From Patescibacteria group bacterium (lineage in GTDB: Bacteria > Patescibacteriota > Minisyncoccia > Minisyncoccales > RBG-13-36-15), in contig JAHCSE010000004.1 of the NCBI GenBank assembly GCA_018609195.1, forward strand, positions 8,474-72,473: a stretch of DNA of 64,000 bases, read 5' to 3'. The position numbers and the translations under genes are program-made. Position 1 is the stretch's first letter. Each line of letters begins with the position of its first letter. Below the pieces are notes generated by a model, which searched no databases, had not been told where the DNA came from, and was given only the letters and a program-made list of their open reading frames with translations. This document shows, piece by piece, positions 10,133-59,712 of this stretch.

Positions 10133-10157
10133 CGGAGGCCGATCTCCGATTTTTTTT
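10133..10157 (+). terminator. rho-independent terminator ending T4P locus 1
   Basis: CGGAG-gccgat-CTCCG followed by a T8 run. Confidence 0.7.
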
Positions 10158-10184
10158 GAGTATAATTGAATCCTCGGCTATAAT
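10156..10184 (+). promoter_or_regulatory. candidate sigma70-type promoter for ligA leader
   Basis: TTGAGT (10156-10161), 17 nt, TATAAT (10179-10184). Confidence 0.4.
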
Positions 10185-10188
10185 TAAA

Positions 10189-10330
10189 AGAGAACATAGG
10201 CCTCGTTACACTCGGCACTATGTTCTTTAGACACCCACGGTTTCTAACGTTTTCGTCCCTCGTTTCACTCAGGACGAAAGCCTGTTTTCCTACACGGAGA
10301 GATACCCAATCTCCCCGACCCCCTCTGTGC
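10189..10330 (+). repeat. structured repeat family, copy A (ligA leader)
   Basis: Contains TTAGACACC-CAC-GGTTTCTAA, hairpin TTCGTCC/GGACGAA, GAAAGCCTGTTTTCCTACACGG, hairpin GGAGAT-accca-ATCTCC and CCGACCCCC. The blocks are in the same order as in copies B-D. Confidence 0.8.
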
Positions 10331-10364
10331 TGTATCGAAATTATTGAAATTCCGATACAAAAAT

Positions 10365-12488
10365 ATGACAAAATCCGAAGCCAAAAAGAGGATTGAGAGA
10401 TTAAAAAAGCTAATCAATCACCATCGCTATCTCTATCACGTTTTGGATAAACAGGAGATTTCTCCTTCAGCTTTAGATTCTCTCAAAAAGGAGCTCTTTG
10501 ATTTGGAGCAAGAATATCCAGAATTTATTACCCTTGATTCTCCTACCCAGAGAATTGGGGGAGAACCCTTGGAAAAATTTAAGAAAGTGAGACACCTTAC
10601 TCCGATGTTATCTTTCAATGATGCTTTCTCTGAAAAAGATATGACCGATTGGCAAGATCGAATTTCAAAACTTTTAACTGATAAAGAGCAGCAAAAAATT
10701 GATTTTTTTTGTGAGTTAAAAATTGATGGGTTAGCTATTGAATTGATTTACAATAATGGAATTTTAAAAACAGGTTCAACGCGAGGAGATGGGATAATTG
10801 GGGAGGATGTCACTCAGAATCTAAAAACCATAGAGGCCATTCCTTTAAGACTAAGAGAAAAAGATGAAATTTTAAAAGATCTAAAAAAACTTAATCTTTC
10901 CCAAACTACCCGCCAGAGGCGAGGCTCGCCAGGGGCGGCCAACTACCAATTACCAGCTACTATTGTCGTCCGGGGAGAGATTTTTATTTCAAAAAAAGAA
11001 TTTGAGAAGTTAAATAAGGAAAGAAAAAAAGGGGGATTGACGCTCTATGCCAATCCAAGAAATGTGGCAGCAGGCTCGATTCGACAATTGGATCCGAAAG
11101 TGACCACTAAAAGGCATCTTGACTCGATTACTTATGATTTAGTTTCAGATCTTGGCCAGAAAACTCATGAGGAAGAACACCAGATTTTAAAAACCCTTGG
11201 ATTCAAGATCAACCTCCATAATAAATATTACAAAAATCTATCAGAAGTTTTTAAATTTCATAAATTTTGGCAAAAAGAGAGGGGAAATATTCCCTATGAG
11301 ATTGATGGGATAGTAGTTATGGTTAATCCAAATCAAATTTTTGAAAAATTAGGAGTGGTGGGAAAAGCTCCCCGGGGGGCAATAGCTTTCAAATTTGCCC
11401 TAAAACAGGCCACCACGAAAATTGAAGATATCAAAGTTCAGATTGGGAGGACTGGGGCTTTGACTCCAGTTGCTTATTTAAAACCTGTGAAAGTGGGAGG
11501 GGTGACTATTTCAAGAGCTACTTTGCACAATGAAGATGAAATAAAAAGACTGGGCGTGAAAATTGGCGATACCGTCATTGTAGGTCGGGCGGGGGACGTC
11601 ATTCCAGATATTATCAAAGTCTTGCCCGAATTAAGAACAGGCAGAGAAGAGGCCTTTCAAATGCCAAGAAAATGCCCAGCTTGTGGCAAAAAAGTGGTAA
11701 AACCTGAGGGGGAGGTGATGTCTCGCTGTGAAAATCCTAAATGCTTTGCCCAGCTGAGAAGATATTTTTACCATTTCATTTCAAAGGGGGCTTTTGATAT
11801 CGTTGGCCTTGGCCCAAAAATTATTGATAAATTAATTGATGCAGGATTAGCTTCAGATCCAGCCGACCTCTTTAAATTAGAAATAGGAGATATTTTGCCC
11901 TTGGAAAGCCTGCCCCGTAGGAAGCCGAAGGCTTTCATTCGGGGATTTGCTGAAAAATCAGCTCAAAATTTAATTTCAGCTATTCAATCACGGAAAAAAA
12001 TTACGCTATCTAAATTAATTTATGTTTTGGGAATTAGAAATGTTGGGGAAGAGACCGCGATAGATTTAGCTCAGCACTTCAAGAATTTAGAAAATTTAAA
12101 AAAGGCAAGGGTTGAGAATTTAGAGAGAGTAAAAGATATTGGTCCTGTCGTAGCCGAATCAATTTATGACTGGTTTCATCAAAAAAGAAATTTGCAATTT
12201 CTAAAGAAGTTGGAGGAAGCAGAAGTAAGAATAGAGAAACCTGAGGTGAAAGCGAAGAAGTTAAAACTTAAAGGATTGACTTTTGTTTTCACTGGCATCC
12301 TGGAGAGCATCACCAGAGATGAAGCGAAAGAAAAAATCAGAGAATTGGGAGGAAAAGTTTCTGAATCAGTATCCAAAAAGACGAATTATGTTATTTTCGG
12401 CAAAGAACCGGGATCGAAATATGAAAAGGCAAAAAAACTAAGCCTCAAGACAATAGGGGAACAGGAATTTCTAAAAATGATTAAATAG
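10365..12488 (+). CDS. ligA: NAD-dependent DNA ligase LigA
   Basis: Adenylation motif CELKIDGLA, Zn finger CPACG...C...C, HhH region, C-terminal BRCT (LTFVFTGIL...). The ORF track starts at TTG 10344 inside a hairpin; ATG 10365 (MTKSEAKKRI) is preferred. Confidence 0.92.
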   Translation: MTKSEAKKRIERLKKLINHHRYLYHVLDKQEISPSALDSLKKELFDLEQEYPEFITLDSPTQRIGGEPLEKFKKVRHLTPMLSFNDAFSEKDMTDWQDRISKLLTDKEQQKIDFFCELKIDGLAIELIYNNGILKTGSTRGDGIIGEDVTQNLKTIEAIPLRLREKDEILKDLKKLNLSQTTRQRRGSPGAANYQLPATIVVRGEIFISKKEFEKLNKERKKGGLTLYANPRNVAAGSIRQLDPKVTTKRHLDSITYDLVSDLGQKTHEEEHQILKTLGFKINLHNKYYKNLSEVFKFHKFWQKERGNIPYEIDGIVVMVNPNQIFEKLGVVGKAPRGAIAFKFALKQATTKIEDIKVQIGRTGALTPVAYLKPVKVGGVTISRATLHNEDEIKRLGVKIGDTVIVGRAGDVIPDIIKVLPELRTGREEAFQMPRKCPACGKKVVKPEGEVMSRCENPKCFAQLRRYFYHFISKGAFDIVGLGPKIIDKLIDAGLASDPADLFKLEIGDILPLESLPRRKPKAFIRGFAEKSAQNLISAIQSRKKITLSKLIYVLGIRNVGEETAIDLAQHFKNLENLKKARVENLERVKDIGPVVAESIYDWFHQKRNLQFLKKLEEAEVRIEKPEVKAKKLKLKGLTFVFTGILESITRDEAKEKIRELGGKVSESVSKKTNYVIFGKEPGSKYEKAKKLSLKTIGEQEFLKMIK
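10911..10940 (+). repeat. GC-rich palindromic mini-insertion in ligA (encodes RQRRGSPGAA)
   Basis: cgccagaggcgaggctcgccaggggcggcc. Its reverse complement shares an exact 22-mer, GCCGCCCCTGGCGAGCCTCGCC, with 34564-34585 in ychF. Confidence 0.8.
11904..11944 (+). repeat. second GC-rich palindromic mini-insertion in ligA
   Basis: GAAAGCC...GGCTTTC and CCCCG...CGGGG nested stems. Encodes SLPRRKPKAFIR just before the conserved GFAEKSAQNL. Confidence 0.65.
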
Positions 12489-14526: not shown

Positions 14527-17379
14527 ATGAATAATAAAGAAGAATCAAAATATATTTCTCTTCAGGAAGCTACAAAATACTGTTCCTATTCTCAGGATTA
14601 TTTATCTTTGCTGGCGAGAACCGGAAAATTGAAGTCAGTAAAGATTGGCAGGAATTGGGTGACTACCAAAGAATGGATTGAGGAATATATAGAAAGAGTG
14701 AAAGAGTTTAATAATTATAATCGGTTACCCAAAAAGAATCTCATCAGGGTTGAAGTTAAATTCGAGGAAGAGGAAATCTCAGAAAGTCCGTCCCCATTAT
14801 CTGAGTCTTCAGAGGACACTTCACCTTTTCAAGAGTTGCCAAAAGTTAGACAACCAGAGCAAGCCCCCCTCCTTATTTTAGCTTTTGCCCTGGTTTTTGT
14901 TTTACTGATAGCTGCCGGAATTTTTGGTAAAGAGAATTTCAAAAATGCTTTTCAACAGATCGATCCTTATGTAACAGCAATTAATCAAGAAGTTGATGAA
15001 GGAATTGTCCAAGGATGGAAAGGGATTCAGAAAGGGGTTCAGGGGATTGGTGGAGCTGGAGATTTTGTTTTTGAAGGGGCAGCTAAATCTTTTGAAGAAA
15101 GTTTTGTTACGGTCTCTAGGGATGCTTATCAATTCTCCCGGGAAGCTGTTTCCATGTTTGGAGAAATTACGGTTCTCGGTTCAGTAGGGGCTAATCAATT
15201 AGCTGAGGTTTCTCAGGAAATTCCAAAATCAATTTTGGAATCGATAAAAAACATTGGCCAATCAATAGGCCAAGGAACAAAAAATATGGCCTCTGGTATT
15301 AGTTCTCGGCTCTCAGGTTTGGCTCAATTCGTCAGCCAGCTTTTCAAAAGAGAAACACTGGTTAAAGTAGAAAAAGAAGTAATACCCGAAGAGTTAGAAA
15401 AAGAAATTGCTAAATTGGCAGATGAGATTGGAAAATTAAAACTGAGAGGATTTCCAGAAAAAGGTCCTCAAGGTCCTCAAGGTTCGCCTGGACCTCCTGG
15501 TCCTCAAGGTCTCTCCGGGCCTCAGGGCCCCACTGGTCCTCAAGGTCCCTCGGGCCCTCCAGGACCCTCTGGGCCTCAAGGAGTGGCAACTCTAGCTGCA
15601 CGTTTTGCAAATTTAAGCACCAATACCGTTTCCATCGGAGGTAATTTTGATTCTCTCAACATAGGAAGAGGGAATCTTACCGTTGATTCAGCTGGAAGTC
15701 TTACTACCTCAGGTTCTCTTACTGTTTCAGGAACAATTACAGAAGGAGGAACCTCCCTAACCTCCAAATATATTGGTATTCCCTCAGGCTCTACTCAGGG
15801 AGATGTTCTCTATTACAGTGGGGCTGCTTGGGCAAGATTAGCAGCAGGGAGCTCTGGCCAATTTTTACAAACCCAAGGTTCCGGAGCTAATCCTGTTTGG
15901 GCAACAGTAACTTCTGGTTCTACTCTCTGGACAGACGGAGGCACTGTAACTTATCTAACCGCAATCTCTGATGATCTGGCCCTGGGAGGAACTGATTCCA
16001 CTGCTCCCTTCTTCATGGATGTTTCAACTGGGAGCCTGGCACTCACTGGTTCTCTCACCGGAACCGTCCTCAACTTAACTGGTCTCACCAACCAGATTGT
16101 TTTAGATTCAGACGGAACAAACACTGGAACCTTAACCATGGCTTCTCTTTCTGCTTCAAGAACCTGGACCTTACCTAATGCTACCGGCACTGTGATCACC
16201 GCAGGAAACCTCACTGATATCACTTCTGTTACCGGGTTAAACACCCAAAATGCCCTCCAACTTGGTCCCTTCGGTTCCTCAGCAGGAAACACAGGAGAGA
16301 TCAGGTTCTTAGAACTTGCTGCCAGTGGTACTAACTATGTAGGATTTAAAGCTCCTGATGCCATTACCACCAATGTAATTTGGACTCTTCCTGCAGCAGA
16401 TGGCACAGCAGATCAGGTCTTATCCACTAATAGTTCAGGAGTTCTCTCCTGGGCTACTGCCGGAGGTCTCTTTACTGATGGCGGAACCACCACCTATCTG
16501 ACCTCAACCACTGATGATTTAGCCCTTGGAGGCACAGATTCCACTGCTCCCTTCTTCATGGATGTTTCAACTGGGAATTTGACTCTCACAGGTGATCTTG
16601 CTGTCAACGGTGGGGATATTACTTCAACTGGCGCACTTACAATCACGCCTGGAGCTGGAACCAACTTCAATATTGCTCTTTCAACCACTGGAGATTTTGC
16701 CGTCAACACCAATCAACTCTTTGTTGATACCTCAACCGGCCGCGTCGGCATCGGGACGGCGAGTCCAGCCTTCAAACTTGATGTGTTAGGCAGTATCAGA
16801 GCCTCGGACGCCTTTCTGTTCTTCGACGGCTCCACTCAAGCTATGGCAAGCACTCCCAGTGGATTTTCCTGGCGTGTCACTACAGCTTCCTTCCTCCAGT
16901 TATTTAACGTAGCAGGAGAGGAAACAAATCCCCGAGGCGTTTTCTTCAAGCCTGACGGAACAAAGATGTATATTATAGGACTTATTGGTGATGATGTCAA
17001 TGAATATAACTTGTCAACTCCCTGGGATGTCTCAACTGCTTCGTTCCTCCAGTTATTTAGCGTATCAGGAGAGGAAACAGTCCCTACAGGCGTTTTCTTC
17101 AAGCCAGACGGAACAAAGATGTATGTTATAGGGTCTACTGGTGATGACGTCAATGAATATAACTTATCAACTCCCTGGGATGTCTTAACAGCTTCGTTCA
17201 ACCAGTTATTTAGCGTGGCAGGAGAGGAAACAGTCCCTACAGGCCTCTTCTTCAAGCCAGACGGAACAAAGATGTATGTTATAGGGCAAAGTGGTGTTGA
17301 TGTCAATGAATATAACTTATCAACTCCCTGGAATGTCTTAACAGCTTCGTTCCTCCAGTTATTTAGCGTATTAGGATAG
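14527..17379 (+). CDS. giant surface-fibre protein, N-terminal part (HTH, TM, collagen-like, tail-fibre-like repeats, 51-aa repeats); ends at in-frame TAG
   Basis: 950 codons. N-terminal excisionase-type HTH ([46 protein letters not shown]), TM helix [22 protein letters not shown], 13 G-X-Y triplets, repeated [16 protein letters not shown] blocks. Confidence 0.85.
15463..15579 (+). repeat. collagen-like G-X-Y tract (13 triplets)
   Basis: [39 protein letters not shown], read in the gene frame. Confidence 0.9.
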
Positions 17380-17634
17380 GAAATAGTCCCTACAGGCGTT
17401 TTCTTCAAGCCAGACGGAACAAAGATGTATGTTATAGGGACTGCTGGTGATGAGGTCAATGAATATAACTTATCAACTCCCTGGGATGTCTTAACTGCTT
17501 CGTTCAACCAGTTATTTAGCGTGGCAGGAGAGGACACAGCCCCTACAGGCGTTTTCTTCAAGCCAGACGGAACAAAGATGTATGTTATAGGAGATAATGA
17601 TGATGATGTCAATGAATATGACTTAGGCCTTATC
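16870..17634 (+). repeat. five tandem 153-nt (51-codon) repeats inside the giant gene
   Basis: Units start at 16870, 17023, 17176, 17329 and 17482. Consensus W[DN][43 protein letters not shown]. Confidence 0.9.
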
Positions 17635-22712: not shown

Positions 22713-22746
22713 CCCTAATAAAAAGAGTCTAATTAGGGATTTTTTG
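22713..22746 (+). terminator. terminator-like hairpin (possible attenuator) just upstream of the rpoB start
   Basis: CCCTAAT-aaaaagagtcta-ATTAGGG followed by aTTTTTTg. Ends 7 nt before ATG 22753. Confidence 0.45.
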
Positions 22747-22752
22747 TATTTT

Positions 22753-25700
22753 ATGGAGATTAAAATAAAAAATTTCGGGAAATCAAAAATTTCTCTCTTC
22801 CCTTCTTATCTATTAGAAACCCAGAAGGAAAGTTGGAAAATATTTTGGGAGAGAGATTTAAAAGAGCTCTTTTCTGAGATTTCTCCAATTAGAGATTATA
22901 CTAAAAAGGAGTTAGAGCTTTGGTTTTTGGATTATAAATTAGATCAGCCAAGATACAAATCAGATTTTGAAGCAAAACAGAACAATGATTCTTATGAAGC
23001 TCCATTAAGAGCGAAGACTAAATTAGTTAATCTCAAAACAAAAGAGATCAAAGAGCAAGAGGTTTTTTTAACTGATTTCCCCTTAATGACTGACAGGGGA
23101 ACTTTTATTGTAAATGGAGTAGAACGAGTGGTCATTTCCCAATTAATTCGCTCTCCCGGGGTATTTTTTACCAGCCAGTTAATTTCGGGCAAAAATTATT
23201 TTGGAGCAAAAATTATCCCCAATCGGGGAGCCTGGCTAGAATTTGAAACAGAAGGCTCAGGTTTAATTGGAGTGAAAATTGATAGAAAAAGAAAGTTACC
23301 AGTAACCACTCTTTTGAGGGCTCTGGGAATTGATAAAGACGCTCAAATAATTGATCTGTTTCAGGATGTAGATCGGGACCCAGAATTAAGTTTTATCAAA
23401 GAAACCTTACAGCGAGATCTAACTCACAACCAGGCTGAAGCTTTGGTTGAAATCTATAAGAGATTAAGGCCAGGAGATTTGGTTACCCCAGAAACTGCCA
23501 GAGAATTAATTGAAAATATGTTCTTTAATTTTGAAAGGTATGATTTGTCGAAAGTGGGAAGATGGAGAATGGGGCAAAGACTTCCAAAGTTAGAAGAAAA
23601 AACAAGAAGGGGAAAGCCGGTTTTAAAGAAAAAAGAAAAAATTAGAGGACATTCGGCTGAGGGCATTCGACAAGCTCACCGCCCTGAGTTTACCGAAGGG
23701 CTCAGTCGAAGCCTAGGAAATCCAGGAGAGGAGGGAATTTCAATAGAGGATAGAGTGTTGAAACCAGAGGATATTGTGGAAACCTTGAGAGAAATCATTA
23801 AGCTTAATAATACTGCTGAAGCTAAACCTGATCAAATTGATCATTTAGGTTCACGAAGGGTGAGAGTTCTTTCTGAGTTTTTACAAAATAGATTGAGAGT
23901 GGGATTAATGAGAATGGAAAGGATAATCAAAGATCGAATGTCAACCTTAGATTTAGCTACCTTGGCTCCAGTGCAGCTCATCAATCCACGGCCATTTATG
24001 GCAGTTGTAAAAGAGTTCTTCACCAACAGTCAGATTGCCCAATTTATGGATAATGAGAATCCTTTAGCGGAATTGGAGCACAAAAGAAGGTTATCAGCTA
24101 CAGGTCCAGGGGGCTTAACTAGAGAAAGGGCAGGTTTTGAGGTCAGAGATGTTCAGCCTTCCCATTATGGGAGAATTTGCCCCATTCAGACTCCTGAAGG
24201 CCCAAACATCGGTTTAGTGGGCCATTTAGCTTCTTTTGCCAAAATTAATCCCTATGGATTTTTGGAAGCCCCTTATTTTAAGGTGGAAAAGGGGAAAGTT
24301 ACTTCTGAAATTCGATATCTGAATGCCTATGAAGAAGAAAAATATAATATTGTTCCTGCTGGAATCTCAATTGGTGAAAAAGGAGATATTTTAGAACCAA
24401 AAGTTGAAGCCAGAATTAAAGGAGAGCCAGGCCAGATCGAAAAAGAAAAGATTGATTTTATTGATGTTTCTTCTACACAATCAATTTCCGTTGCCACTTC
24501 TCTTATCCCCTTTTTACAAAATGATGATGCCAATCGAGCTTTGATGGGTTCTAATATGCAGCGACAAGCCGTTCCTTTAATTAATCCTGAAATACCTTTT
24601 GTGTGCACTGGAATGGAGGAGAAAGTTGCCCAAGATTCTGGGCAGGAAATAGTGTCTGAAGGAGAGGGGCAGGTTGAAGAAGTAGATGGAGAAAAGATTA
24701 CTGTTTTATATAAAACTCCAAAGAAAAATCGTAAAACCTATCAATTAAAGACTTTCTTTAGAACCAATCAATATACCTGTTTCCATCAAAGGGCAATAGT
24801 TAAAAAAGGGAGAATGGTTAAGAAAGGAGAGATTTTAGCAGATGGAGCAGCGATTTCCAGAGGGTACTTGGCTTTAGGCAAAAATATTTTAGTTGCCTTT
24901 TTACCTTGGCGGGGAGGGAATTTTGAAGATGCTATTTTAATCTCCGAAAGATTGGTCAAAGATGATATCTTTACCTCAATTCATATTGACGACTTTAGTT
25001 GTGATATTAGAGAAACAAAGTTGGGACCTGAAATCACCACCGCTGATATTCCCAATGTGGGGGAGGAAAGATTGAAAGATCTTGATGAGGAAGGGATCGT
25101 TAGAATTGGGGCAGAGGTTGAACCTAATGATATTTTGGTTGGAAAAATTTCTCCCAAAGGTGAGACGGATTTGACGGCTGAAGAGAGATTACTTCGGGCA
25201 ATTTTTGGGGAAAAGGCGAGGGAGGTCAAGGATACTTCTTTACGAATGGAACATGGGAAAAAAGGAAGAGTAACTGAGGTTAAAATTTGGGAGAGAGAAA
25301 AAGGGGTGAAATTGGAGCCGGGAGTAATAAAAAGAATCCAGGTTGAAGTAGCTGAGATTCGAAAAATCCAAGCCGGTGATAAATTGACGGGGCGCCACGG
25401 AAATAAAGGAGTAGTTTCTAAAGTTTTACCTGATGAAGAAATGCCATTTTTAGAAGATGGAACTCCAGTAGACATTATCTTAAATCCTCTAAGTGTTGTC
25501 TCCAGAATGAATGTTGGTCAGGTCTTAGAGACTCATCTGGGATTGGCAGCTAAGAAACTGGGGTATATTGCTATCTCTCCGGCTTTAGCTGGAGCTACTG
25601 AGGAAGATATCAAAGAAGAGCTAAAAACAGCTTCTCTTTCTGAGGATGGTAAATTTACTCTCTATGATGGAAGATCTGGGGAGCCTTTTGAGGAGAAAAT

Positions 25701-26112
25701 TACAGTTGGGTATATTTACATGATGAAATTAATCCATATGGTGACAGATAAAATCCATATGCGCTCCATTGGTCCTTATTCTTTAATTACCCAGCAACCT
25801 TTGGGAGGGAAAGCCCAGTTTGGAGGACAGAGATTTGGAGAAATGGAAGTCTGGGCTTTAGAAGGGCATGGAGCTGCCAGTACTCTTCAGGAAATGTTGA
25901 CTATTAAATCTGATGATGTTCCAGGAAGAGCCGCTACCTATGAAGCAATCTTGAAAGGAGAACTAATAAAACCTCCCAGTCTGCCCGCTTCCTTTAATTT
26001 ACTAATCAGTGAATTAAAATCCCTTGGATTAAATGTAGAAGTGAAGGAGAAACCACCGCAAGAAAAATCCGAAATTCGAAATCCTAAATTCGAAACAAAT
26101 CCTAAATTATAA
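22753..26112 (+). CDS. rpoB: DNA-directed RNA polymerase subunit beta
   Basis: Conserved blocks include FMDNENPLAELEHKRRLSATGPGGL, GDKLTGRHGNKGVVS and QRFGEMEVWALE. ATG 22753 is preferred over TTG 22744. Confidence 0.95.
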   Translation: MEIKIKNFGKSKISLFPSYLLETQKESWKIFWERDLKELFSEISPIRDYTKKELELWFLDYKLDQPRYKSDFEAKQNNDSYEAPLRAKTKLVNLKTKEIKEQEVFLTDFPLMTDRGTFIVNGVERVVISQLIRSPGVFFTSQLISGKNYFGAKIIPNRGAWLEFETEGSGLIGVKIDRKRKLPVTTLLRALGIDKDAQIIDLFQDVDRDPELSFIKETLQRDLTHNQAEALVEIYKRLRPGDLVTPETARELIENMFFNFERYDLSKVGRWRMGQRLPKLEEKTRRGKPVLKKKEKIRGHSAEGIRQAHRPEFTEGLSRSLGNPGEEGISIEDRVLKPEDIVETLREIIKLNNTAEAKPDQIDHLGSRRVRVLSEFLQNRLRVGLMRMERIIKDRMSTLDLATLAPVQLINPRPFMAVVKEFFTNSQIAQFMDNENPLAELEHKRRLSATGPGGLTRERAGFEVRDVQPSHYGRICPIQTPEGPNIGLVGHLASFAKINPYGFLEAPYFKVEKGKVTSEIRYLNAYEEEKYNIVPAGISIGEKGDILEPKVEARIKGEPGQIEKEKIDFIDVSSTQSISVATSLIPFLQNDDANRALMGSNMQRQAVPLINPEIPFVCTGMEEKVAQDSGQEIVSEGEGQVEEVDGEKITVLYKTPKKNRKTYQLKTFFRTNQYTCFHQRAIVKKGRMVKKGEILADGAAISRGYLALGKNILVAFLPWRGGNFEDAILISERLVKDDIFTSIHIDDFSCDIRETKLGPEITTADIPNVGEERLKDLDEEGIVRIGAEVEPNDILVGKISPKGETDLTAEERLLRAIFGEKAREVKDTSLRMEHGKKGRVTEVKIWEREKGVKLEPGVIKRIQVEVAEIRKIQAGDKLTGRHGNKGVVSKVLPDEEMPFLEDGTPVDIILNPLSVVSRMNVGQVLETHLGLAAKKLGYIAISPALAGATEEDIKEELKTASLSEDGKFTLYDGRSGEPFEEKITVGYIYMMKLIHMVTDKIHMRSIGPYSLITQQPLGGKAQFGGQRFGEMEVWALEGHGAASTLQEMLTIKSDDVPGRAATYEAILKGELIKPPSLPASFNLLISELKSLGLNVEVKEKPPQEKSEIRNPKFETNPKL
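23651..23716 (+). repeat. GC-rich mini-insertion in rpoB (encodes about SAEGIRQAHRPEFTEGLSRSLG)
   Basis: Locally GC-rich with TTCGAC...GTCGAA pairing. Shares the 15-mer CATTCGACAAGCTCA (23664-23678) with the intergenic palindrome at 59149-59163. Confidence 0.7.
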
Positions 26113-26192
26113 TGTTCCAAACGTGTTTGGGATTTGGAAAATTAGAAAATTCGAATTTGTTTAGGATTTAGATATTAGAATTTAGAATTTTA
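26066..26192. repeat. AT-rich word-palindrome element, copy 1 (rpoB 3' end to rpoC start)
   Basis: Left words aaatccgaaattcgaaatcctaaattcgaaacaaatcctaaa, centre CCAAAC-gt-GTTTGG, right words ttcgaatttgtttaggatttagatattagaatttagaa. Homologous to 60556-60684. Confidence 0.8.
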
Positions 26193-26196
26193 AATT

Positions 26197-29100
26197 ATGC
26201 GTGTAGCTGACCTTGAATCAATAAAAATAAAATTAGCATCCCCAGAAGAAATTTTGTCTTGGTCAAAAGGGGAGGTGACAAAACCTGAGACCATTAATTA
26301 CCGAACCCAGAGGTCAGAAAAGGATGGTTTATTTGATGAGAAAATCTTCGGACCCGTAAAAGATTATGAATGTTATTGTGGGAAGTATCGAAGGATTCGT
26401 TACAAAGGAATAATCTGTGATCGCTGTGGAGTGGAGGTGACAAAGTCTCAAGTGAGAAGAGAAAGGATGGGTCATATAAAATTAGCAGCTCCAGCTTCTC
26501 ATATTTGGTTTTTACGGGGGGTTCCTTCCAGAATAGGAATGGTTTTGGGTATTCCAATGCTCCAACTAGAAAGAGTGATTTATTTTGCAGCCTATATTAT
26601 TACTAAAGTTAACAGAGAAAAAAGGAAGGAAGTTTTACAAGAAATTGAAAGAGAGTACAAACAAAAATTAAGAAGTTTAAAATCTGAGACAAAAAAGAAA
26701 AAATCTTCTTCGACAGACTCCCGCTCCAAAGGAACGAAGCTCGCCTCTCGTGAGGCGGCAGGACGAGTTCCTTCTTTGGAATCAAGAACTCAAGCTCTTC
26801 AGACAGCTAAAGAGAAAGCGAGAGGGGAAGTTTTAGGGTTAGATATCCTAAAAACTCTTTCTGAGGTAGATTATCATAATCTCTCTCTAAAATATGGAGA
26901 AATTTTTGAAGCAGGAACGGGAGCTGAAGTTTTAAGGAAGATCTTTGAAGAGATTGATCTGGCAAAGACCATAGATCCGCTAAAAAAAGAAGCCAAAGAG
27001 GCTTCTTCCCTCAATCAAAGGAAAATTTTAAGAAGATTGCAGTTTCTCCGGGAAATGCTAAAAGCCAAAATTCGACCAGAATGGATGTTTTTAACAATTT
27101 TACCAATTTTACCTCCTGATTTGAGACCTATGGTTCAATTAGATGGGGGAAGATATGCCTCTTCTGATTTAAATGATCTTTATCGCAGGGTGATTAACAG
27201 AAATAACCGGCTCAAATATTTACTAGAAGTTAAAGCTCCTGAGGTTATTGTTAGAAATGAAAAAAGAATGCTGCAAGAAGCAGTTGATGCCTTAATTGAT
27301 AACAGTATGCGAAAAGGGACCACTACCCTAGCTACCACCGGGGGAAGGAGGCTTTTGAAATCGTTAGCTGATATGCTCAAAGGGAAACAAGGGAGATTTA
27401 GGCAGAATCTTTTAGGAAAGAGAGTAGATTATTCTGGAAGATCGGTAATTGTGGTAGGGCCTGAATTGAAATTTAATCAAGTAGGTCTTCCGAAGAAAAT
27501 GGCCCTGGAATTATTCAAACCCATGGTCATTCAAAAAATCTTAGCAAAGGAATTAGCTTATAATGTTCGGGGAGCCTCAAGGTTAATTGAACAAGAAACT
27601 GATGAGGTTTGGGAGAGTTTAGAAGAGGTGGTTAAGGATAAATTGGTCTTGCTCAACCGAGCTCCAACCTTACATCGATTGGGTATTCAGGCTTTCCAAC
27701 CAATCTTAATTGAAGGAGAGGCAATGAGAGTTCACCCTTTAGTTTGTAAGGCCTTTAATGCCGATTTTGATGGCGACCAGATGGCAGTGTATTTACCCCT
27801 ATCTAAAGAAGCTCAAAAGGAAGCTAAAGAGATAATGTTATCAAGTCTTAATTTGTTAAAACCTGCTACCGGTACTCCCATTGTTTCCCCGGAGCAAGAT
27901 ATTGTTTTGGGTTGCTATTGGGTAACTAAAATTAAAGACTACACCGTTCCTGGAGCAATGGGGGAGGGAAAAGTCTTTGGATCTCAAGGTGAAGCTATTT
28001 TAGCCTATGACACAGGCATTATTGATTTGAGAGAAAAAATTAAGGTCAGACTACAATCCATCCACCCACGCACCACCTCCGGTCAGCCCGAAAAATCGGG
28101 AATGATTATAGAAACCTCGGTGGGGAGAATTCTTTTTAACCAAACCTTACCTCTTGAGCTCCCGTTTATTAATGAAGAAATCAATGGAAAGAAGCTAGAG
28201 AAGATAGTGGGTTTGATAATTGGCAAAATAGGGATTGATCTGACCCACATATATTTAGATAAAATTAAAAATTTAGGATTTGAAATGTCTACCAAATCAG
28301 GTATTTCTTGGGGAATGACAGATTTAATTACCCCTCCAGGGAAAGGGAAAATAATTAAAGACGCAGAGAAAGAGATTGAAGTAATAGATAAACATTATAA
28401 AAAAGGGTTATTATCAAGAGATGAAAAAAGAATTCAGGCTATTGAAGTTTGGCAGAGAGCAAAATTAGAAATTGAAAAATTAGTTCCCAAAACTTTGCCT
28501 GAATTGGGGCCAGTGCATTATATTATTTCTTCTGGGGCTAGGGGGTCCTGGGTACAGACTGTGCAGATGGCTGGGATGAAAGGATTGGTGATTAATCCCT
28601 CAGGTCAGATTATTGAGCTACCGGTTAAGAATTCTTACAAGGAAGGATTTAGTATTTTGGAATATTTTATTTCTACCCATGGAGCAAGGAAAGGTACAGC
28701 AGATACCGCCTTGAGAACTTCAACTGCGGGGTATCTGACTCGAAGACTAGTTGACGTTGCTCATGAAATGATAATTAGTGAAGAAGATTGCCGAGATAAA
28801 AAGGGAATGACGATTTTTAGAGAAGATGCTACAGATCTTGGTCAAAATCTCCTTTTTAAGATTTTGGGAAGAATATCTTTACAAAATATAACAGCCAAAC
28901 AGCCAGGCGCAAAAGTTGTAAAGCTAAAGGTTAGAAGGCTGATTGTGAAAGAAGGAGAAATCATCGATTGGGATAAGGCAGATCTCATCTCAAAAGCTGC
29001 AATTGAAAAATTACAAGTTCGCTCTCCTCTTAGTTGCAAAAGTTTACAAGGAATTTGTCAAAAGTGTTATGGTTGGGACTTAGGCTTAAATCAGCTCATT

Positions 29101-29931
29101 AAATTAGGAGAAGCGGTAGGAGTGGTGGCAGCCCAGGCCATTGGAGAACCTGGTACCCAGTTGACGATGAGAACTTTCCATATGGGAGGGGTAGCGGGGG
29201 AAGGAGATATTACTTTAGGATTGCCTCGGGTGGAAGAGATTTTTGAAGCAAGACCTCCGAGTTTGGAAGCTCCGATTTCAGTTGCTGAAGGGAAGGTAAT
29301 TGATATTACTCCAGAAAGAGTGTTGAGAATAAAAATAAAAAATAACCTCCGTGAACTGCGGTTGAAGAAGAAAAAGAATGCAATTTTAGATTATAAAATT
29401 GCGGATAGACAGGCGATATTAGTTAAAAAAGGGGAGGAGGTGAAAAAGGGTCAAACTCTAGCTGAGGGTAATTTAAATTTAAAAGAATTATATAAATTGA
29501 CGGGGGATCACAACACTCAGAGATATATTATTAAAGAGATTCAAAAAATCTATGTTTCTCAAGGAGCAGTTATTCACGATAAACACCTGGAAGTGATAAT
29601 TCGACAGATGTTTTCTCGATTGAGGATTTTAGATCCAGGAGCCACAGATTTTACTGCCGGAGAAATTTTAGGGAAAGCAAAGGTTCTTCAAGAGAACCTC
29701 CGATTAAAAAAAGAGAAAAAAAGAATAATTTCTTTTCAACCAATTCTATTAGGAATTTCTAAGGTAGCTCTGACGACTGATTCATTTTTATCTGCAGCAT
29801 CTTTCCAGGAAACTTCCCGAGTTTTGATTAAAGCTGCAATGGAAGGAAAATCTGATCAATTAAAGGGATTGAAAGAGAATGTTATAATAGGAAAGCTAAT
29901 CCCAGCTGGAACTGGTTTTAAAAAACAGTAG
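26197..29931 (+). CDS. rpoC: DNA-directed RNA polymerase subunit beta'
   Basis: Zn-binding CYCGKYRRIRYKGIICDRCGVEV, catalytic NADFDGDQMAV, trigger-loop and bridge-helix regions. Confidence 0.95.
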   Translation: MRVADLESIKIKLASPEEILSWSKGEVTKPETINYRTQRSEKDGLFDEKIFGPVKDYECYCGKYRRIRYKGIICDRCGVEVTKSQVRRERMGHIKLAAPASHIWFLRGVPSRIGMVLGIPMLQLERVIYFAAYIITKVNREKRKEVLQEIEREYKQKLRSLKSETKKKKSSSTDSRSKGTKLASREAAGRVPSLESRTQALQTAKEKARGEVLGLDILKTLSEVDYHNLSLKYGEIFEAGTGAEVLRKIFEEIDLAKTIDPLKKEAKEASSLNQRKILRRLQFLREMLKAKIRPEWMFLTILPILPPDLRPMVQLDGGRYASSDLNDLYRRVINRNNRLKYLLEVKAPEVIVRNEKRMLQEAVDALIDNSMRKGTTTLATTGGRRLLKSLADMLKGKQGRFRQNLLGKRVDYSGRSVIVVGPELKFNQVGLPKKMALELFKPMVIQKILAKELAYNVRGASRLIEQETDEVWESLEEVVKDKLVLLNRAPTLHRLGIQAFQPILIEGEAMRVHPLVCKAFNADFDGDQMAVYLPLSKEAQKEAKEIMLSSLNLLKPATGTPIVSPEQDIVLGCYWVTKIKDYTVPGAMGEGKVFGSQGEAILAYDTGIIDLREKIKVRLQSIHPRTTSGQPEKSGMIIETSVGRILFNQTLPLELPFINEEINGKKLEKIVGLIIGKIGIDLTHIYLDKIKNLGFEMSTKSGISWGMTDLITPPGKGKIIKDAEKEIEVIDKHYKKGLLSRDEKRIQAIEVWQRAKLEIEKLVPKTLPELGPVHYIISSGARGSWVQTVQMAGMKGLVINPSGQIIELPVKNSYKEGFSILEYFISTHGARKGTADTALRTSTAGYLTRRLVDVAHEMIISEEDCRDKKGMTIFREDATDLGQNLLFKILGRISLQNITAKQPGAKVVKLKVRRLIVKEGEIIDWDKADLISKAAIEKLQVRSPLSCKSLQGICQKCYGWDLGLNQLIKLGEAVGVVAAQAIGEPGTQLTMRTFHMGGVAGEGDITLGLPRVEEIFEARPPSLEAPISVAEGKVIDITPERVLRIKIKNNLRELRLKKKKNAILDYKIADRQAILVKKGEEVKKGQTLAEGNLNLKELYKLTGDHNTQRYIIKEIQKIYVSQGAVIHDKHLEVIIRQMFSRLRILDPGATDFTAGEILGKAKVLQENLRLKKEKKRIISFQPILLGISKVALTTDSFLSAASFQETSRVLIKAAMEGKSDQLKGLKENVIIGKLIPAGTGFKKQ
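26725..26780 (+). repeat. GC-rich palindromic mini-insertion in rpoC
   Basis: TCCAAAGGAAC...GTTCCttcTTTGGA outer stem with CGCCTC-tcgt-GAGGCG inner hairpin. Encodes part of SRSKGTKLASREAAGRVPSLES. Confidence 0.7.
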
Positions 29932-34472: not shown

Positions 34473-35540
34473 TTATATCTTAAACTCAATTACATCCCCG
34501 TCTTCCACAACATGATCTTTCCCTACTATTTTTAGCCATCCCAGTTCCCGGGTTCTTGGCCAAGCCGCCCCTGGCGAGCCTCGCCCTTCGAGGCGGGAAC
34601 CCGCCTCTATTAATTTGTCCCAACTAATTACTTCAGCCTTTATGAATTTTCCCTCAAAGTCAGAATGGACTTTTCCCCCTGCTTCTGGGGCCCTGCTTCC
34701 TTTCATTACAGTCCAAGCTCTTGTTTCTTTTCCCCCAGCTATCGTATAAAAAGTAATGAGGTCAAGAATATCGTAGCATTTTAAAATAAGCTGGTCAAGG
34801 GAACTTGAAATTTCAAGCTCTTTTAATTCTGAAGGATTTAATTCAGAGATTTCCTCTTCTATTTTGAGATTAAGGGGAATGAAATTTTCTCCTTTAAATT
34901 CAACATTCTTTTGATTAATATTTAAGACCAACACTTTTGGTTTTGCAGTTAAAAATTGGTATTCTTGAATTTCTGATTTTTCTTCTTCGGTTAAATCAAG
35001 ATCTGCAATTAACTTTCCTTCAGATACCGAAGCTTTAATTTTTTCGAAGATACCGATTTTTTTTAAAGCAATTTTACTTGAGGATTTGGCATCTTTTTCA
35101 AGTTTTTTTATTAAATTTTCTAATGTTTCTAAATCCTTCATTAAAAGTTCAACCTTTATTATCTCAATTTCTTTTTCTGGATTAATCTCTCCAAGAACAT
35201 TTTCAACTTCAGGATCGTTAAAGGTTCTCACCACCTCTAAAATGGCATCACAATTTCTGATATGGGCCAAAAATTGATTTCCTAGACCCTCTCCTTTGTG
35301 AGCTCCTTTCACTAAACCTGCAATATCAATAAATTCAATAACAGTGGGAGTGACCTTCTCCGGTTTAATAATTTCAGCAATTTTTTCTAATCTTTCATCA
35401 GGGACAATAACTACTCCAACATTAGGATGGATAGTAGTGAAAGGGTAGGCAGCAATATCAATTTTCTTTTTGGTTAAAGCTTTAAATAAAGTTGATTTGC
35501 CGACATTAGGTAAACCGACAATACCTATTGAAAAACTCAT
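34473..35540 (-). CDS. ychF: ribosome-binding ATPase YchF
   Basis: 355 aa. G1 GLPNVGKSTLFKALT, DIAGLVKGAHKGEGLGNQFL, C-terminal TGS-like VVEDGDVIEFKI. Confidence 0.9.
   Translation of the reverse strand: MSFSIGIVGLPNVGKSTLFKALTKKKIDIAAYPFTTIHPNVGVVIVPDERLEKIAEIIKPEKVTPTVIEFIDIAGLVKGAHKGEGLGNQFLAHIRNCDAILEVVRTFNDPEVENVLGEINPEKEIEIIKVELLMKDLETLENLIKKLEKDAKSSSKIALKKIGIFEKIKASVSEGKLIADLDLTEEEKSEIQEYQFLTAKPKVLVLNINQKNVEFKGENFIPLNLKIEEEISELNPSELKELEISSSLDQLILKCYDILDLITFYTIAGGKETRAWTVMKGSRAPEAGGKVHSDFEGKFIKAEVISWDKLIEAGSRLEGRGSPGAAWPRTRELGWLKIVGKDHVVEDGDVIEFKI
34548..34604 (-). repeat. GC-rich nested-palindrome mini-insertion in ychF (57 nt, encodes about RLEGRGSPGAAWPRTRE)
   Basis: CGGGTTC...GAACCCG, TTGGCCAA, CCGCC...GGCGG, GGCGAG-c-CTCGCC. 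Contains the exact 22-mer shared with ligA. Confidence 0.8.
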
Positions 35541-39377: not shown

Positions 39378-39425
39378 CTTTCGGCTAGCCTCTTCTTTTT
39401 TATTTCCACACTCGCTTGGTCTTAA

Positions 39426-39607
39426 TGTACCAATTCGTCGCTCGCCCTCATCCAGCCTTACGGCTGGCCCGAGCACATAAATTATGTGCTCGGTTCGGGC
39501 TCGCTCCCCAGACACCCTCGGTTTCTGGCGTTCGTCGCTTCGCTCCTCACTGTTTTCCTACACGGGAAAACACCCAGTTTTCCCGACCCCTTTCTGAAGA
39601 ATGGTAC
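39426..39607 (+). repeat. structured repeat family, copy B
   Basis: 5' domain with hairpins CCAGCCTTACGGCTGG and CGAGCACATAA-at-TTATGTGCTCG. Then CCAGACACC-ctc-GGTTTCTGG, CTGTTTTCCTACACGG, GGGAAAAC-accca-GTTTTCCC and CCGACCCC. Ends pair as TGTACCA / TGGTACA. Confidence 0.85.
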
Positions 39608-45805: not shown

Positions 45806-45834
45806 TTGATTTTTTTGAAAATTTAATATATAAT
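45806..45834 (+). promoter_or_regulatory. candidate promoter for the uvrA leader
   Basis: TTGATT (45806-45811), 17 nt, TATAAT (45829-45834). Confidence 0.5.
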
Positions 45835-45840
45835 GGGAAA

Positions 45841-46047
45841 CTCAATATGCCTGAGTCGCGGCACGCGACACTTACCTTCGGCAAGTGCGCTATCACCGCT
45901 CCTTAGAAACCCACGGTTTCTAAGTATCACCCCAAATTCGCTTGCGCTAGAATTTGGGGACCCCGATTTTGGCGAAAGCCTGTTTTCCTTCACGGGAAAA
46001 CGCCCACTGTTCACACACAGCCCAGTTTTCCCGACCCCTTTCTCATT
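45841..46047 (+). repeat. structured repeat family, copy C (uvrA leader)
   Basis: Hairpins GTCGCG-gca-CGCGAC and CACTTACC-ttcg-GCAAGTG. Then TTAGAAACC-cac-GGTTTCTAA, CCCCAAATTC...GAATTTGGGG, GAAAGCCTGTTTTCCTTCACGG, GGGAAAAC-(23-nt loop)-GTTTTCCC and CCGACCCC. Confidence 0.85.
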
Positions 46048-46056
46048 TTCATTAAC

Positions 46057-49035: not shown

Positions 49036-49326
49036 ATGAAAATTAAACCTCTCTCTGATCATATTTTAATTGAGCCAATGAAACGGGAGGAGAAAACTAA
49101 GACGGGGATTTTGTTACCAGAAACTGCTGAAAAAGATAAGCCAGAACAAGGGAAGGTGGTGGCTGTGGGACCAGGGAGGAAGACTTCCTCAGGTAAAGTT
49201 ATTCCTTTAGAAGTAAAAGAAGGGGATATTGTTTTATTTACAAAATATGGACCAAATGAAATAAAAATTGATGATAAGGAATATTTAGTTGCTAAAGAAG
49301 AAGATATATTAGCGATCCTCGAATAG
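49036..49326 (+). CDS. groES: co-chaperonin GroES
   Basis: MKIKPLSDHILIEP...GKVVAVGPG.... The track start at 49015 lies inside the CIRCE site. ATG 49027 and ATG 49036 are both possible. Confidence 0.9.
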   Translation: MKIKPLSDHILIEPMKREEKTKTGILLPETAEKDKPEQGKVVAVGPGRKTSSGKVIPLEVKEGDIVLFTKYGPNEIKIDDKEYLVAKEEDILAILE

Positions 49327-49327
49327 C

Positions 49328-51153
<1,826 letters not shown>

Positions 51154-57928: not shown

Positions 57929-59017
57929 ATGTTTAATTTTTTTAAAAAACCAACTTTTGGATTAGATATTTCAGATTACTCTATTGAGATAATTTCTTTG
58001 GAAGGAACGGTTGAAAAACCTAGACTTTCGGCTTTGGGAAGAGAAATCTTAGAGCCAGGGATTGTTGAGGATGGTAAGATTCTTGAAAAGGAGAAGCTGG
58101 AAGTTATTCTCAGGGCCTTATTAGAAAAACTCAAATTTGGTAAAATCAAGACAAAGAAATTAATTTTTGCTCTGCCTGAGTCAAAAACTTTTCTTCATTT
58201 TTTTGAGTTGCCCGAAGTTTTGGAAAAAGAAAGAATTGAGAAAGAAATCAAATTACAGGCTATGCACACTTTCCCTTTTCCCTTGAAAGAGCTCTATTTT
58301 GATTTTAAAGTGGGAGACAAAGAAGTTCTTTTAGTAGCTGCCCAAAAAGATATAGTTGATGATTATTTGGAAGTATTTAAAAATGTAGAAATCCAACCAA
58401 TAGCCCTGGAAATTGAATCAATAAGTTTGGCTCGATCTCTCATCGGAAATCAGAAGGAAACTATTTTAATTGCTGATATCGGTGCTCGAACAACCAATTT
58501 TAGCCTTTTTGACCAAAATCGTCTCAGGCTTAGTATTTCAATTAATATTGCTGGAGATAGATTTAACCAGGCCTTAATGGAAAAATCAAATATTTCCTTC
58601 CAAGAGGCTGAAAATCTTAAAAAAGAAATTGGCCTTGATCCAGAGAAAAAAGAGGGAAAGGTTTTTTTAATCTTACAGAAAGAGATTCAGGAGATAATAG
58701 CCGAAATTAAAAAAATTGCGGATTATTTTCAAAATAAAACTGGGAAAAAGATTGAAAAAGTAATTTTGGCTGGGGGGTCAGCTATCCTTCATCATCTCCC
58801 GGAATATTTGGCTGAAAATTTGGAAAAACCAGTTTCAATTGGCGACCCCTGGGAAAAAATAAATATCGATATTTTAAAAGAGAAAGAATATTTTGAGAAA
58901 GCTTTAGAAATTAACCCAATTTTATATGCCACAGTCATTGGTTCTACCCTGCGGGGATTAACAAAAGAACCAGAAAAAGCGGGAATAAATTTGTTGCCAA
59001 GAGAGAGAAAATTTTGA
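57929..59017 (+). CDS. pilM: type IV pilus assembly protein PilM (actin-like ATPase fold)
   Basis: 362 aa. GLDISDYSIEII, IADIGARTTNFSLF, ILAGGSA phosphate and adenosine motifs of the PilM/FtsA-like family. Confidence 0.85.
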   Translation: MFNFFKKPTFGLDISDYSIEIISLEGTVEKPRLSALGREILEPGIVEDGKILEKEKLEVILRALLEKLKFGKIKTKKLIFALPESKTFLHFFELPEVLEKERIEKEIKLQAMHTFPFPLKELYFDFKVGDKEVLLVAAQKDIVDDYLEVFKNVEIQPIALEIESISLARSLIGNQKETILIADIGARTTNFSLFDQNRLRLSISINIAGDRFNQALMEKSNISFQEAENLKKEIGLDPEKKEGKVFLILQKEIQEIIAEIKKIADYFQNKTGKKIEKVILAGGSAILHHLPEYLAENLEKPVSIGDPWEKINIDILKEKEYFEKALEINPILYATVIGSTLRGLTKEPEKAGINLLPRERKF

Positions 59018-59124: not shown

Positions 59125-59145
59125 AAAATAAAAACAGAAAGGTCG

Positions 59146-59193
59146 ACCCATTCGACAAGCTCAGGGTCGATGCTGAGCTAGTCGAAGCATCGA
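59146..59193. repeat. GC-rich palindrome inserted in the pilin 5' leader
   Basis: TTCGACaAGCTCAG-ggtcgatg-CTGAGCTaGTCGAA, flanked by TCGA at 59143-59146 and 59190-59193. Absent from the paralogous leader at 5640-5683. Confidence 0.75.
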
Positions 59194-59223
59194 ATTTAAA
59201 TCTTACATTCAATAAAAACCAAA

Positions 59224-59712
59224 ATGAAAATTTCCAGTAAAAAGAAAGGCTTCACCTTGATCGAACTTTTGATTGTCATTGGAATTATAGCAGTCTTAGT
59301 TGCAATAGCTATTGTAGCAATTAACCCTGCTCGACAATTTGCCAAAACCAACAATGCCGTACGCTTTGCAGATGTTAATACTACCTTGAATGCTGTTTCC
59401 CAGAATGTTGTGGACGGGAGAGGAATCTGGACTTGTCCTGAGGTCCTTCCTACAACAGCTGAACCAATAAAAGCAGATGATGCAGATCCACTTACTGACG
59501 AAGCCGATATTTGTGATTGTCTTGTCCCAACATATATTGGCTCCATGCCTTCAGATCCCACCGCTGGTGTTGCACCAACTACGCCGCCTTGTACTGGCTA
59601 TGATACTGGTTACACTATTTCCCAAGATGCCACTACGGGCCGAGTGACTATCGTTGCTCCCAGTGCTCAGTCAGAAAACGGAGCTGCTCCAATAATTTCA
59701 GTTACCCGCTAA
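59224..59712 (+). CDS. type IV (major) pilin, locus 2
   Basis: 162 aa. KKGFTLIELLIVIGIIAVLVAIAIVAINP. Confidence 0.85.
   Translation: MKISSKKKGFTLIELLIVIGIIAVLVAIAIVAINPARQFAKTNNAVRFADVNTTLNAVSQNVVDGRGIWTCPEVLPTTAEPIKADDADPLTDEADICDCLVPTYIGSMPSDPTAGVAPTTPPCTGYDTGYTISQDATTGRVTIVAPSAQSENGAAPIISVTR

Follow-up and report, generated by a model that had tools for sequence, protein, structure and literature searches.

A GC-rich palindromic element of 63-66 nt lies within rpoB, the gene for the beta subunit of RNA polymerase, in a 64,000-nt stretch of a Patescibacteria genome (contig JAHCSE010000004.1; hereafter, the window), the nearest named matches to its RpoB being from Candidatus Nealsonbacteria. 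It appears probable (roughly three chances in four) that this element is a selfish palindrome, similar to repetitive extragenic palindromic (REP) sequences and Rickettsia palindromic elements (RPEs), that inserted in frame into a permissive loop of RpoB, where it is translated and tolerated. A second, intergenic copy is present in the same window, and a wide motif search reveals a dispersed family, mostly intergenic, whose members are found in frame in other genes as well.

An extra GC-rich palindrome in rpoB

The element spans positions 23647-23713 on the forward strand, encodes GHSAEGIRQAHRPEFTEGLSRS and is absent from the orthologous DNA of two relatives (L001 and L002). Its host gene (22744-26112, +; 1122 aa) is followed in the list of open reading frames (ORFs) by rpoC (26197-29931), and all six Rpb2 Pfam domains are on record for P0001, a protein 100% identical to the window RpoB. 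Alignment of this RpoB with its 120 best matches, from Candidatus Nealsonbacteria and Patescibacteria (121 sequences in all), revealed a true length difference exactly at this site. Where the window reads KEKIR-GHSAEGIRQAHRPEFTEGLSRS-LGNPGEE, the nearest proteins other than its own, P0002 and P0003 (81-82% identity), read KAR|TGNPGGDE and KEKIK|LGNPNPGEE, respectively, and among the 120 orthologs the peptide signature of the TTCGACAAGCTCA family occurs at this loop in the window lineage only. By protein alignment, the extra segment comprises 66 nt (23647-23712; 22 codons, G302-S323), and by DNA alignment with L001 and L002, where 63-66 additional bases lie between conserved flanks, 63 nt (23651-23713). 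The peptide SAEGIRQAHRPEFTEGLSRSLG, which the initial annotation had placed at 23651-23716, is encoded by 23653-23718.

That annotation had drawn attention to the stretch for its base composition and for a word that recurs far downstream, and both observations hold. The GC content, 0.373 on average over the window, rises to 0.62 in an island at approximately 23644-23735, and the 15-mer CATTCGACAAGCTCA is present at 23664-23678 in rpoB and at 59149-59163 in an intergenic region, on the forward strand in both cases. Only 0.06 matches are expected by chance, none of 100 shuffled sequences reached two, and no third copy was detected in the 64-kb window even with 2 mismatches allowed. A second common block, AGTCGAAGC, follows in the same order (23704-23712 and 59180-59188).

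The RNA of the insert (23645-23725) has a predicted folding energy of -30.9 kcal/mol, with z = -3.1 for the sense strand and z = -0.3 for the antisense strand. The TTCGAC and GTCGAA hexamers, originally proposed to pair with each other, are both present, but in the minimum-energy fold each has another partner: GTCGAA (23705-10) pairs with the outer TTCGGC (23652-57), and TTCGAC (23666-71) with CCGAA (23693-97). From left to right on the forward strand, the copy consists of an outer left arm TTCGGCTGAG (23652-23661), which pairs with 23701-23710 in the fold and was also recovered by pattern search; a stem half S (GGGC, 23661-23664); the conserved core TTCGACAAGCTCA (23666-23678), which is read I-R-Q-A-H and is identical in loci of many phyla; a stem half S' (GCCC, 23681-23684), complementary to both S and S''; a degenerate complementary core TGAGTTTACCGAA (23685-23697; the family consensus is TGAGC-NNN-GTCGAA), recognized from the fold and from the minus-strand match TTCGGTAAACTCAG with 3 mismatches; the stem half S'' (GGGC, 23698-23701); and the outer right arm CTCAGTCGAA (23701-23710), likewise seen in the fold and the pattern search. 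This is the layout of the family, GGGC-A-core-CC-GCCC-TGAGTTTACCGAA-GGGC, to which the arms TTCGGCTGAG and CTCAGTCGAA are added; these arms resemble a betaproteobacterial variant, GTTCGGGCTGAGCCC-core, and no other copy of the outer arm TTCGRCTGAGGGC was found in the window.

The core can be read in all three sense frames, as FDKLR, STSSG or IRQAQ/H, and the rpoB copy uses the third, which the TTGA stem closes in the compact form of the family and which is open here because the stem is GCCC. Since the length of the added DNA (63-66 nt) is divisible by three and no stop codon occurs in the frame used (...GIRQAH...), rpoB remains intact. The predicted tryptic peptide of the insert is QAHRPEFTEGLSR, and the predicted junction peptides are GHSAEGIR and SLGNPGEEGISIEDR. 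An identical insert is present in a second assembly (L179, a Joint Genome Institute contig) that is 99.9% identical to the window over 10.6 kb.

The variable loop of RpoB and the betaIn5 site

The insert is part of a loop (aa 281-335; 23584-23748, +) between GRWRMGQRLP and EI[ST]VxDRVLKPEDV that is the most length-variable and most indel-prone segment of RpoB, ranging from 6 to 62 aa with 82 distinct variants in the 121 aligned sequences. The loop maps to betaIn5, a position in the beta lobe already known for lineage-specific insertion. In phmmer alignments, aa 213-280 of the window RpoB correspond to B. subtilis beta 212-279 and aa 332-460 to 369-496, so that the loop falls into the gap between B. 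subtilis residues 279 and 369, that is, at betaIn5 (280-368). With S. aureus beta, the alignment picks up again at residue 371, which fits the extent of betaIn5 in that protein (L281-K373, in the beta lobe; PMC11156646); E. coli beta has only about 5 residues at this position. The beta2 lobe is a recognized hot spot of lineage-specific insertions, and betaIn5, with a size cited as ~180 aa for B. subtilis, has neither a known structural relative nor a known function (PMC7749167).

The insert and the Firmicutes betaIn5 share a position in the RpoB alignment, which does not imply sequence homology. In Firmicutes, betaIn5 forms a folded domain of ~90 aa (S. aureus L281-K373) packed onto the lobe, whereas the entire loop of the window protein is 55 aa long and the 22-aa insert is predicted to be disordered: in an AlphaFold2 model of RpoB 140-470 (mean predicted local distance difference test score, pLDDT, 70.5), the region that contains the insert (300-329) has pLDDT < 50 and no predicted secondary structure, suggesting a disordered, surface-exposed segment. 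Given the hypervariability of the loop among close relatives and the lack of predicted secondary structure, we rejected the identification of the insert with the Firmicutes betaIn5 domain.

In the relatives inspected (L125, L126, L127, L001 and L002), the loop contains unrelated sequence or nothing. The L126 loop has a hairpin-forming ADKKSAKIS-type repeat (-36.5 kcal/mol), the L127 loop an AT-rich AAATTCAAAATTC repeat, and the loops of L001 and L002 show no structured sequence. In L125 (10826-11029, within rpoB of the P0007 genome, which represents another Nealsonbacteria lineage), we observed a different, much stronger GC-rich palindrome that encodes ...LPAPQAPRPTSPLAQPKAGGQASGGQAG...; a 131-nt hairpin stretch covers most of this 204-nt loop (-67.7 kcal/mol, z = -3.9).

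A dispersed family of double hairpins

The intergenic copy (59140-59196, +) has the canonical compact form of the family, TCGA-CCC-A-[TTCGACAAGCTCA]-GGG-TCGA-TGC-[TGAGCTAGTCGAA]-GCA-TCGA, as judged by sequence, fold and covariance model. It folds with -24.4 kcal/mol, is stable on both strands (z = -4.2 and -4.95) and scores 74.3 bits with a covariance model, R1, of which it was a training member. The copy lies between pilM (57929-59017) and an ORF for a prepilin-type protein with an N-methylation motif (59224-59712, +; Pfam N_methyl, E = 1.6e-8), 28 nt ahead of its ATG, so that its original description as a palindrome in a pilin leader is a fair one. A scan for promoters and terminators around this copy yielded nothing convincing. 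The proposal that one element type exists both between genes and within the rpoB coding sequence is supported, with the translation of the latter copy suggested by its open frame; the two copies represent different sub-architectures of one superfamily rather than near-identical siblings.

We scanned one genome per GTDB species with the pattern TTCGACAAGCTCA-N(4-34)-GTCGAAGC, which fixes 21 bases only, and found at least 120 loci, compared with a chance expectation of ~8 (596 Gb x 2 strands x 31 gap lengths / 4^21). Among the matches listed, the hosts belong to more than 10 phyla, including Actinomycetota, Chloroflexota, Bacteroidota, Alpha- and Betaproteobacteria, Campylobacterota, Cyanobacteria, Spirochaetota, Nitrospinota, Calditrichota, Latescibacterota, Binatia, Eremiobacterota and Patescibacteria, and the GC content of the loci ranges from 0.32 to 0.73. 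The right arm TGAGY, left unspecified in the pattern, is present in 93 of the 133 listed hits (80 of the 120 loci); a handful of the listed matches, such as those in DnaK-like ORFs, are mere coding coincidences.

The common architecture can be written x-TTCGACAAGCTCAG-x' ... y-CTGAGCYTGTCGAAGC-y', where a near-invariant core of 13-14 nt, TTCGACAAGCTCA(G), and its complement are each closed by a short stem of their own that varies among genomes, the two cores being complementary to each other. Over 226 core occurrences, the flanks form stems of 3.9 bp on average (1.7 bp in shuffled sequences), with more than 100 different stems. The compact form, TCAAYCC-A-core-GGRTTGA-TGC-TGAGC-NNN-GTCGAA-GCA-TCAA, is typical of the Candidate Phyla Radiation (CPR), where it mostly lies between genes, and was found on 51 metagenome contigs; in low-GC genomes, canonical copies occupy short intergenic spacers. 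In 48 distinct compact copies, stem 1 is paired in 94.3% of cases, with 4 of its 7 pairs changed on both sides, and stem 3 in 99.4%, with 3 of 7 pairs so changed. None of 500 shuffles matched the observed percentage paired, the number of cells changed on both sides or the covariation score; the counts of pairs and of pair types were reached in 4-11 of the 500, and slid controls scored far lower. The stems of the family thus covary, which indicates that the structure is under selection somewhere in the family.

The model R1 was trained on five intergenic compact copies, the rpoB copy being left out. The rpoB copy (23660-23721) is its sole further match in the window (17.4 bits, E = 0.055, by itself a marginal value), and it also retrieves copies in the sister genome (L002 9434-9527 and L003 16179-16237). 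The former, in the genome of the closest RpoB relative, is a longer member of the family (CCCTTCGACCCTTCAACAGGCTCAGGGTC...CTGAGCCTGTCGAAG) in a 668-nt spacer upstream of rpoB; the equivalent spacer of the window, 225 nt long, contains no family member. About a quarter of the compact copies (in L128-L178, e.g., L149, L139, L161, L167 and L178) are embedded in period-7 arrays of the form NNNTCAA, the units of which (AAGTCAA, ATCTCAA, AGTTCAA and others) run on both sides of the element and contain its stem, TCAA.

Searches of databases and of the literature returned no description of the family. Rfam 15, searched at the gathering threshold with the window and five loci that contain canonical copies, reported tRNAs only. 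A full-text search with the DNA motif and its peptide translations, within the literature covered, retrieved no paper containing the motif, and nothing about the TTCGACAAGCTCA element emerged from a search for repeats and in-frame insertions in the CPR. A plasmid BLAST search with a canonical copy gave one unannotated match, and a protein-database search with a 54-aa concatenation of three peptide variants produced 51 candidates, with a single, uninformative match.

In-frame copies in other genes

Compact copies were identified in frame in several CPR genes, the hosts being confirmed by Pfam unless stated otherwise: internally in leucyl-tRNA synthetase (...QNQESR[INPFDKLRIDAEQSRSIK]NQSEQ...) and in a PMT_2 glycosyltransferase; at the N-terminus of phosphoglucomutase in two genomes (L003 and L169) and of an S1-domain protein; and at the C-terminus of IspD and of a YbeY-like protein (the latter host recognized by sequence only). 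Outside the CPR, a pullulanase and the linker that joins the two parts of a NuoE-NuoF fusion contain in-frame copies. The leucyl-tRNA synthetase gene (L170 357-3446, -) encodes further repeat-like peptides (SEIRNPKSEITAAGG..., GNPTSSGSAGLRGARKGE... and LKLRGTSRGARKGE...) beside the compact element, which suggests that essential proteins of the CPR may hold many repeat-derived inserts.

For phosphoglucomutase, filled and empty sites can be compared. The empty sites (L125 and L126) read ATGAAAATCAACCC|TAATATT, and the filled site of L003, part of the genome of the closest RpoB relative of the window, reads ATGAAAATCAACCC[ATTCGATAAATTCAGGGTTGATGCTGAGTATAGCCGAAGCATCAACCC]GAATATT, a gain of 48 nt (16 codons), with a flanking direct repeat of 5-8 nt, (A)TCAA(CCC), that equals the stem of the element itself. 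The filled sites (L003 16175-16240 and L169) have the insertion after codon 5 (the empty sites are at L125 23089 and L126 22983), and the native MKINP codons (ATCAACCC) are present on both sides of the element. The L003 copy has drifted toward AT (TTCGATAAATTCAGG).

Origin of the rpoB insert

The most plausible scenario is that a GC-rich member of the double-hairpin family inserted into rpoB in the lineage leading to this Nealsonbacteria genome, at the betaIn5 position of the beta lobe, in a loop that tolerates almost any length and sequence in this clade. The element would then be translated as ~22 additional residues and persist as a neutral or nearly neutral passenger, in the manner of the RPEs, with the rpoB mRNA now containing a hairpin of approximately -30 kcal/mol that the ribosome would have to unwind. 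There is no sign of a new function, and neutral or nearly neutral status is most likely. The direction of the event was probably a gain in the window lineage and not a loss in the relatives. The mechanism of insertion is the weakest step of this scenario: the phosphoglucomutase sites would fit either a target-site duplication or microhomology with the stem of the element.

Several observations weigh against this scenario. The rpoB copy is a composite with extra outer arms that scores only 17.4 bits with the model of the compact form, and a 14-nt near-duplication (GAGGACATTCG / GAGGGCATTCG) is present at its left end. Only two elements of the family occur in the 64 kb, with no sibling of the rpoB sub-type among them, and no mobilizing enzyme or transposase was identified, the window ORFs not having been scanned for Y1 transposases. 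The closest available relative that lacks the insert has 82% protein identity and the 99.9%-identical strain has it, so the event cannot be dated with the relatives available; because the nearest empty site is 18% diverged, the ends of the insert cannot be fixed, and no target-site duplication is definable at rpoB, where the candidates (AGGA / GGA, GAGGRC) lack sufficient length and the relatives have diverged too far. Finally, the strength of the hairpin on the sense strand only (z = -3.1 and -0.3) could hint at selection at the RNA level instead of pure neutrality.

A bolder version of the insertion scenario, which we regard as unlikely, would regard the double hairpin with the core TTCGACAAGCTCA(G) as a mobile element of bacteria at large that has yet to be described, the conserved loops of which would be recognized by a widespread enzyme; the variable internal stem half S' would pair with, and thereby select, a target that is duplicated on either side as S and S'', and the element would be a recurrent source of new peptide segments in essential proteins of the CPR, including that at the betaIn5 site.

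The same sense-strand asymmetry, together with the covariation of the family stems, would be accounted for if the hairpin were a functional RNA or DNA element of rpoB (a site of RNase processing or stability, a translational pause that lets the beta lobe fold, or a site bound by a factor recognizing the core) and the peptide a by-product; stem-loop tigRNAs (tandem interspaced guide RNAs) inside tas genes provide a precedent in the CPR (preprint 10.64898/2026.09.09.750476). However, only one lineage has the insert among the 120 RpoB proteins closest to that of the window, the inner right arm of the insert is degraded, with 3 mismatches to its partner, the loops of the relatives contain unrelated sequence or nothing, and the family is dispersed over unrelated contexts, all of which makes a functional role unlikely.

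Even less likely, in our estimation, is an origin of the palindrome in place, by slippage, template switching or duplication-inversion in a low-complexity loop, with the resemblance to the family due to convergence or chance. The loop is indeed an indel hot spot with diverse low-complexity, repeat-like fillers, and a near-tandem duplication of 14 nt is present at the left end of the insert. Nevertheless, in-place formation leaves unexplained the exact 15-mer and 9-mer shared in the same order, the 13-nt core found in many loci of many phyla, the matching stem/core/stem layout and the detection of the insert by a model trained on other copies, as well as a GC content of 0.62, which is out of keeping with a loop in which lysine codons otherwise abound.

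It is highly improbable that the inserted residues are missing from the mature protein, whether through bypassing of the type known from T4 gene 60 or through removal from the mRNA. Matching GGA codons (a take-off at 23647-49 and a landing at 23716-18) do surround the element, with a stable hairpin between them, but the reading frame stays open over its whole length and the first GGA is followed by CAT and not by a stop, unlike in bypassing of the gene 60 type; moreover, bypassing would remove native residues, given that X-G-N-P in the orthologs corresponds to the L-G-N-P next to the insert in the window, and no bacterial mechanism is known that would cut 66 nt out of an mRNA. An assembly or chimerism artefact can be dismissed in spite of the notoriety of repeats as a source of misassembly in metagenomes, because the identical insert is present in L179, which differs from the window at 10 of 10,616 positions and in tandem-repeat copy number, the insert is in frame and free of stops, and family members are in frame in other genes from unrelated samples. 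Resemblances to hammerhead, box C/D and integration host factor sites, noticed by eye, are too weak to claim.

Other repeats in the window

Repeat-like DNA was also observed elsewhere in rpoB and rpoC. The C-terminal tail of RpoB, SEIRNPKFETNPKL (26065-26096, last 16 codons), is an AT-rich octamer repeat, AAATYCGAAAT, that recurs ~34 kb away, and the spacer after rpoB likewise matches a second locus (26150-26192, 60551-60614 and 60640-60682). Among relatives, the length of this tail ranges between 4 and 23 aa, and uptake of repeat DNA thus seems to occur at the C-terminus as well. In rpoC, a GC-rich segment of ~25 aa (26703-26791) is present in a diverged form in the P0002 genome and is absent from the P0003 genome, and another, of 14 aa (QSIHPRTTSGQPEK, ~28045-28090), is found in the window only. 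The first opens with a core-like sequence, TTCGACAGACTC (26707-26718). Neither segment shows significant structure (z = 0.0 and -0.7), and we therefore rejected both as family hairpins and did not count them in the family.

Four copies of a GC-rich intergenic repeat of ~170-200 nt are located at 10150-10350 (+), 39400-39600 (+), 45830-46050 (+) and 49295-49540 (-). They share the conserved blocks TAGAMACCCACGGTTTCTAA, CTGTTTTCCTWCACGG and CCCGACCCC and an internal hairpin with compensatory changes (GGGAAAAC/GTTTTCCC versus GGAGAGAT/ATCTCCCC) and have no Rfam match; they could be an undescribed structured RNA or a mobile element. Two further intergenic regions (10886-10981 and 34520-34627), with GC content of up to 0.68-0.78, contain the same palindrome in opposite orientation (of the GGCGAGGCTCGCC / GGCGAGCCTCGCC type), which is another small repeat family of this genome. 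Collagen-like 9-nt (GPQ-type) repeats and four tandem repeats of 153 nt are present in a large gene for a surface protein (15453-15611 and 16868-17626); the copy arrangement in this tandem-repeat region differs between L179 and the window.

Implications and comparison with known repeat systems

If the insertion scenario holds, the betaIn5 site is seen taking up raw repeat DNA in one lineage, while neighboring lineages have other repeat-derived or palindromic fillers. How lineage-specific insertions in bacterial RNA polymerase originate is unexplained, and a start as selfish DNA would become directly testable; should the TTCGACAAGCTCA(G) hairpin further prove to be a mobile element, a lineage-specific insertion at betaIn5 would have been caught at birth. 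Protein-coding palindromes of the kind known from Rickettsia would extend to the CPR/Patescibacteria, with the essential genes rpoB and leuS affected. REP-like repeats are normally species- or genus-specific. The core described here is identical across genomes of 32%-73% GC from more than 10 phyla, which suggests a shared recognition factor. In addition, the elements create spurious or extended ORFs (FDKLR, STSSG, LSLSK and similar), by which annotation may be misled.

Among the systems compared, TIGR-Tas tigRNAs are likewise structured, in frame in CPR genes and mapped to disordered protein segments (10.64898/2026.09.09.750476). However, tigRNAs are arrayed within tas genes or next to them and have variable spacers and box C/D motifs, and we rejected a TIGR array as the identity of the rpoB element, which is single and has an invariant core, dispersed copies and no tas context. 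Bacterial transposable elements of the miniature inverted-repeat class (MITEs) with in-frame intragenic copies include the ERIC and RU elements and Coxiella QMITE1 (PMC10969869, PMC2759123, PMC5896051). Similarly to the family described here, MITEs are small non-autonomous repeats with inverted arms that are able to make translational fusions, and the phosphoglucomutase copy has a short flanking direct repeat, (A)TCAA(CCC), which is, however, identical to the stem sequence of the element. MITEs are typically 100-400 bp long and have terminal inverted repeats derived from a recognizable insertion sequence, whereas the present element is much smaller.

The two closest parallels are the REP sequences and the RPEs. 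REP sequences and bacterial interspersed mosaic elements (BIMEs), including intragenic REPs and the GTAG- and CGTC-tagged superfamilies (Di Nocera et al. 2013, PMC3733652), are, like the present family, short GC-rich palindromes that reside mostly in short intergenic spacers, often as pairs in opposite orientation, with occasional intragenic copies. REPs are palindromes of 20-40 bp with a conserved stem of at least 8-9 bp, a loop of ~4-5 nt and a GTAG or CGTC tag; in the family described here, by contrast, a loop of 13-14 nt is conserved and the stems vary, which is the inverse of the REP logic. Membership in the GTAG/CGTC superfamilies was rejected, GTAG/CTAC and CGTC/GACG being absent from both 23647-23713 and 59140-59196. 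The RPEs, as summarized in PMC10969869 (Ogata et al. 2000, 2002), are frequently present as in-frame insertions in unrelated, often essential genes. Both they and the present element are dispersed palindromic repeats that occur in frame within coding sequences, both extend the protein by a short peptide at sites where the fold allows it, and both inhabit small, AT-rich, host-dependent genomes. The RPEs are ~100-150 bp long and confined to Rickettsia, whereas the element described here is ~45-66 nt long, GC-rich and hosted by Nealsonbacteria, with a core common to many phyla; judged by size and host, it falls outside RPE-1 to RPE-10. Thus, the element resembles RPEs and intragenic REPs in its behavior but lacks the defining features of both.

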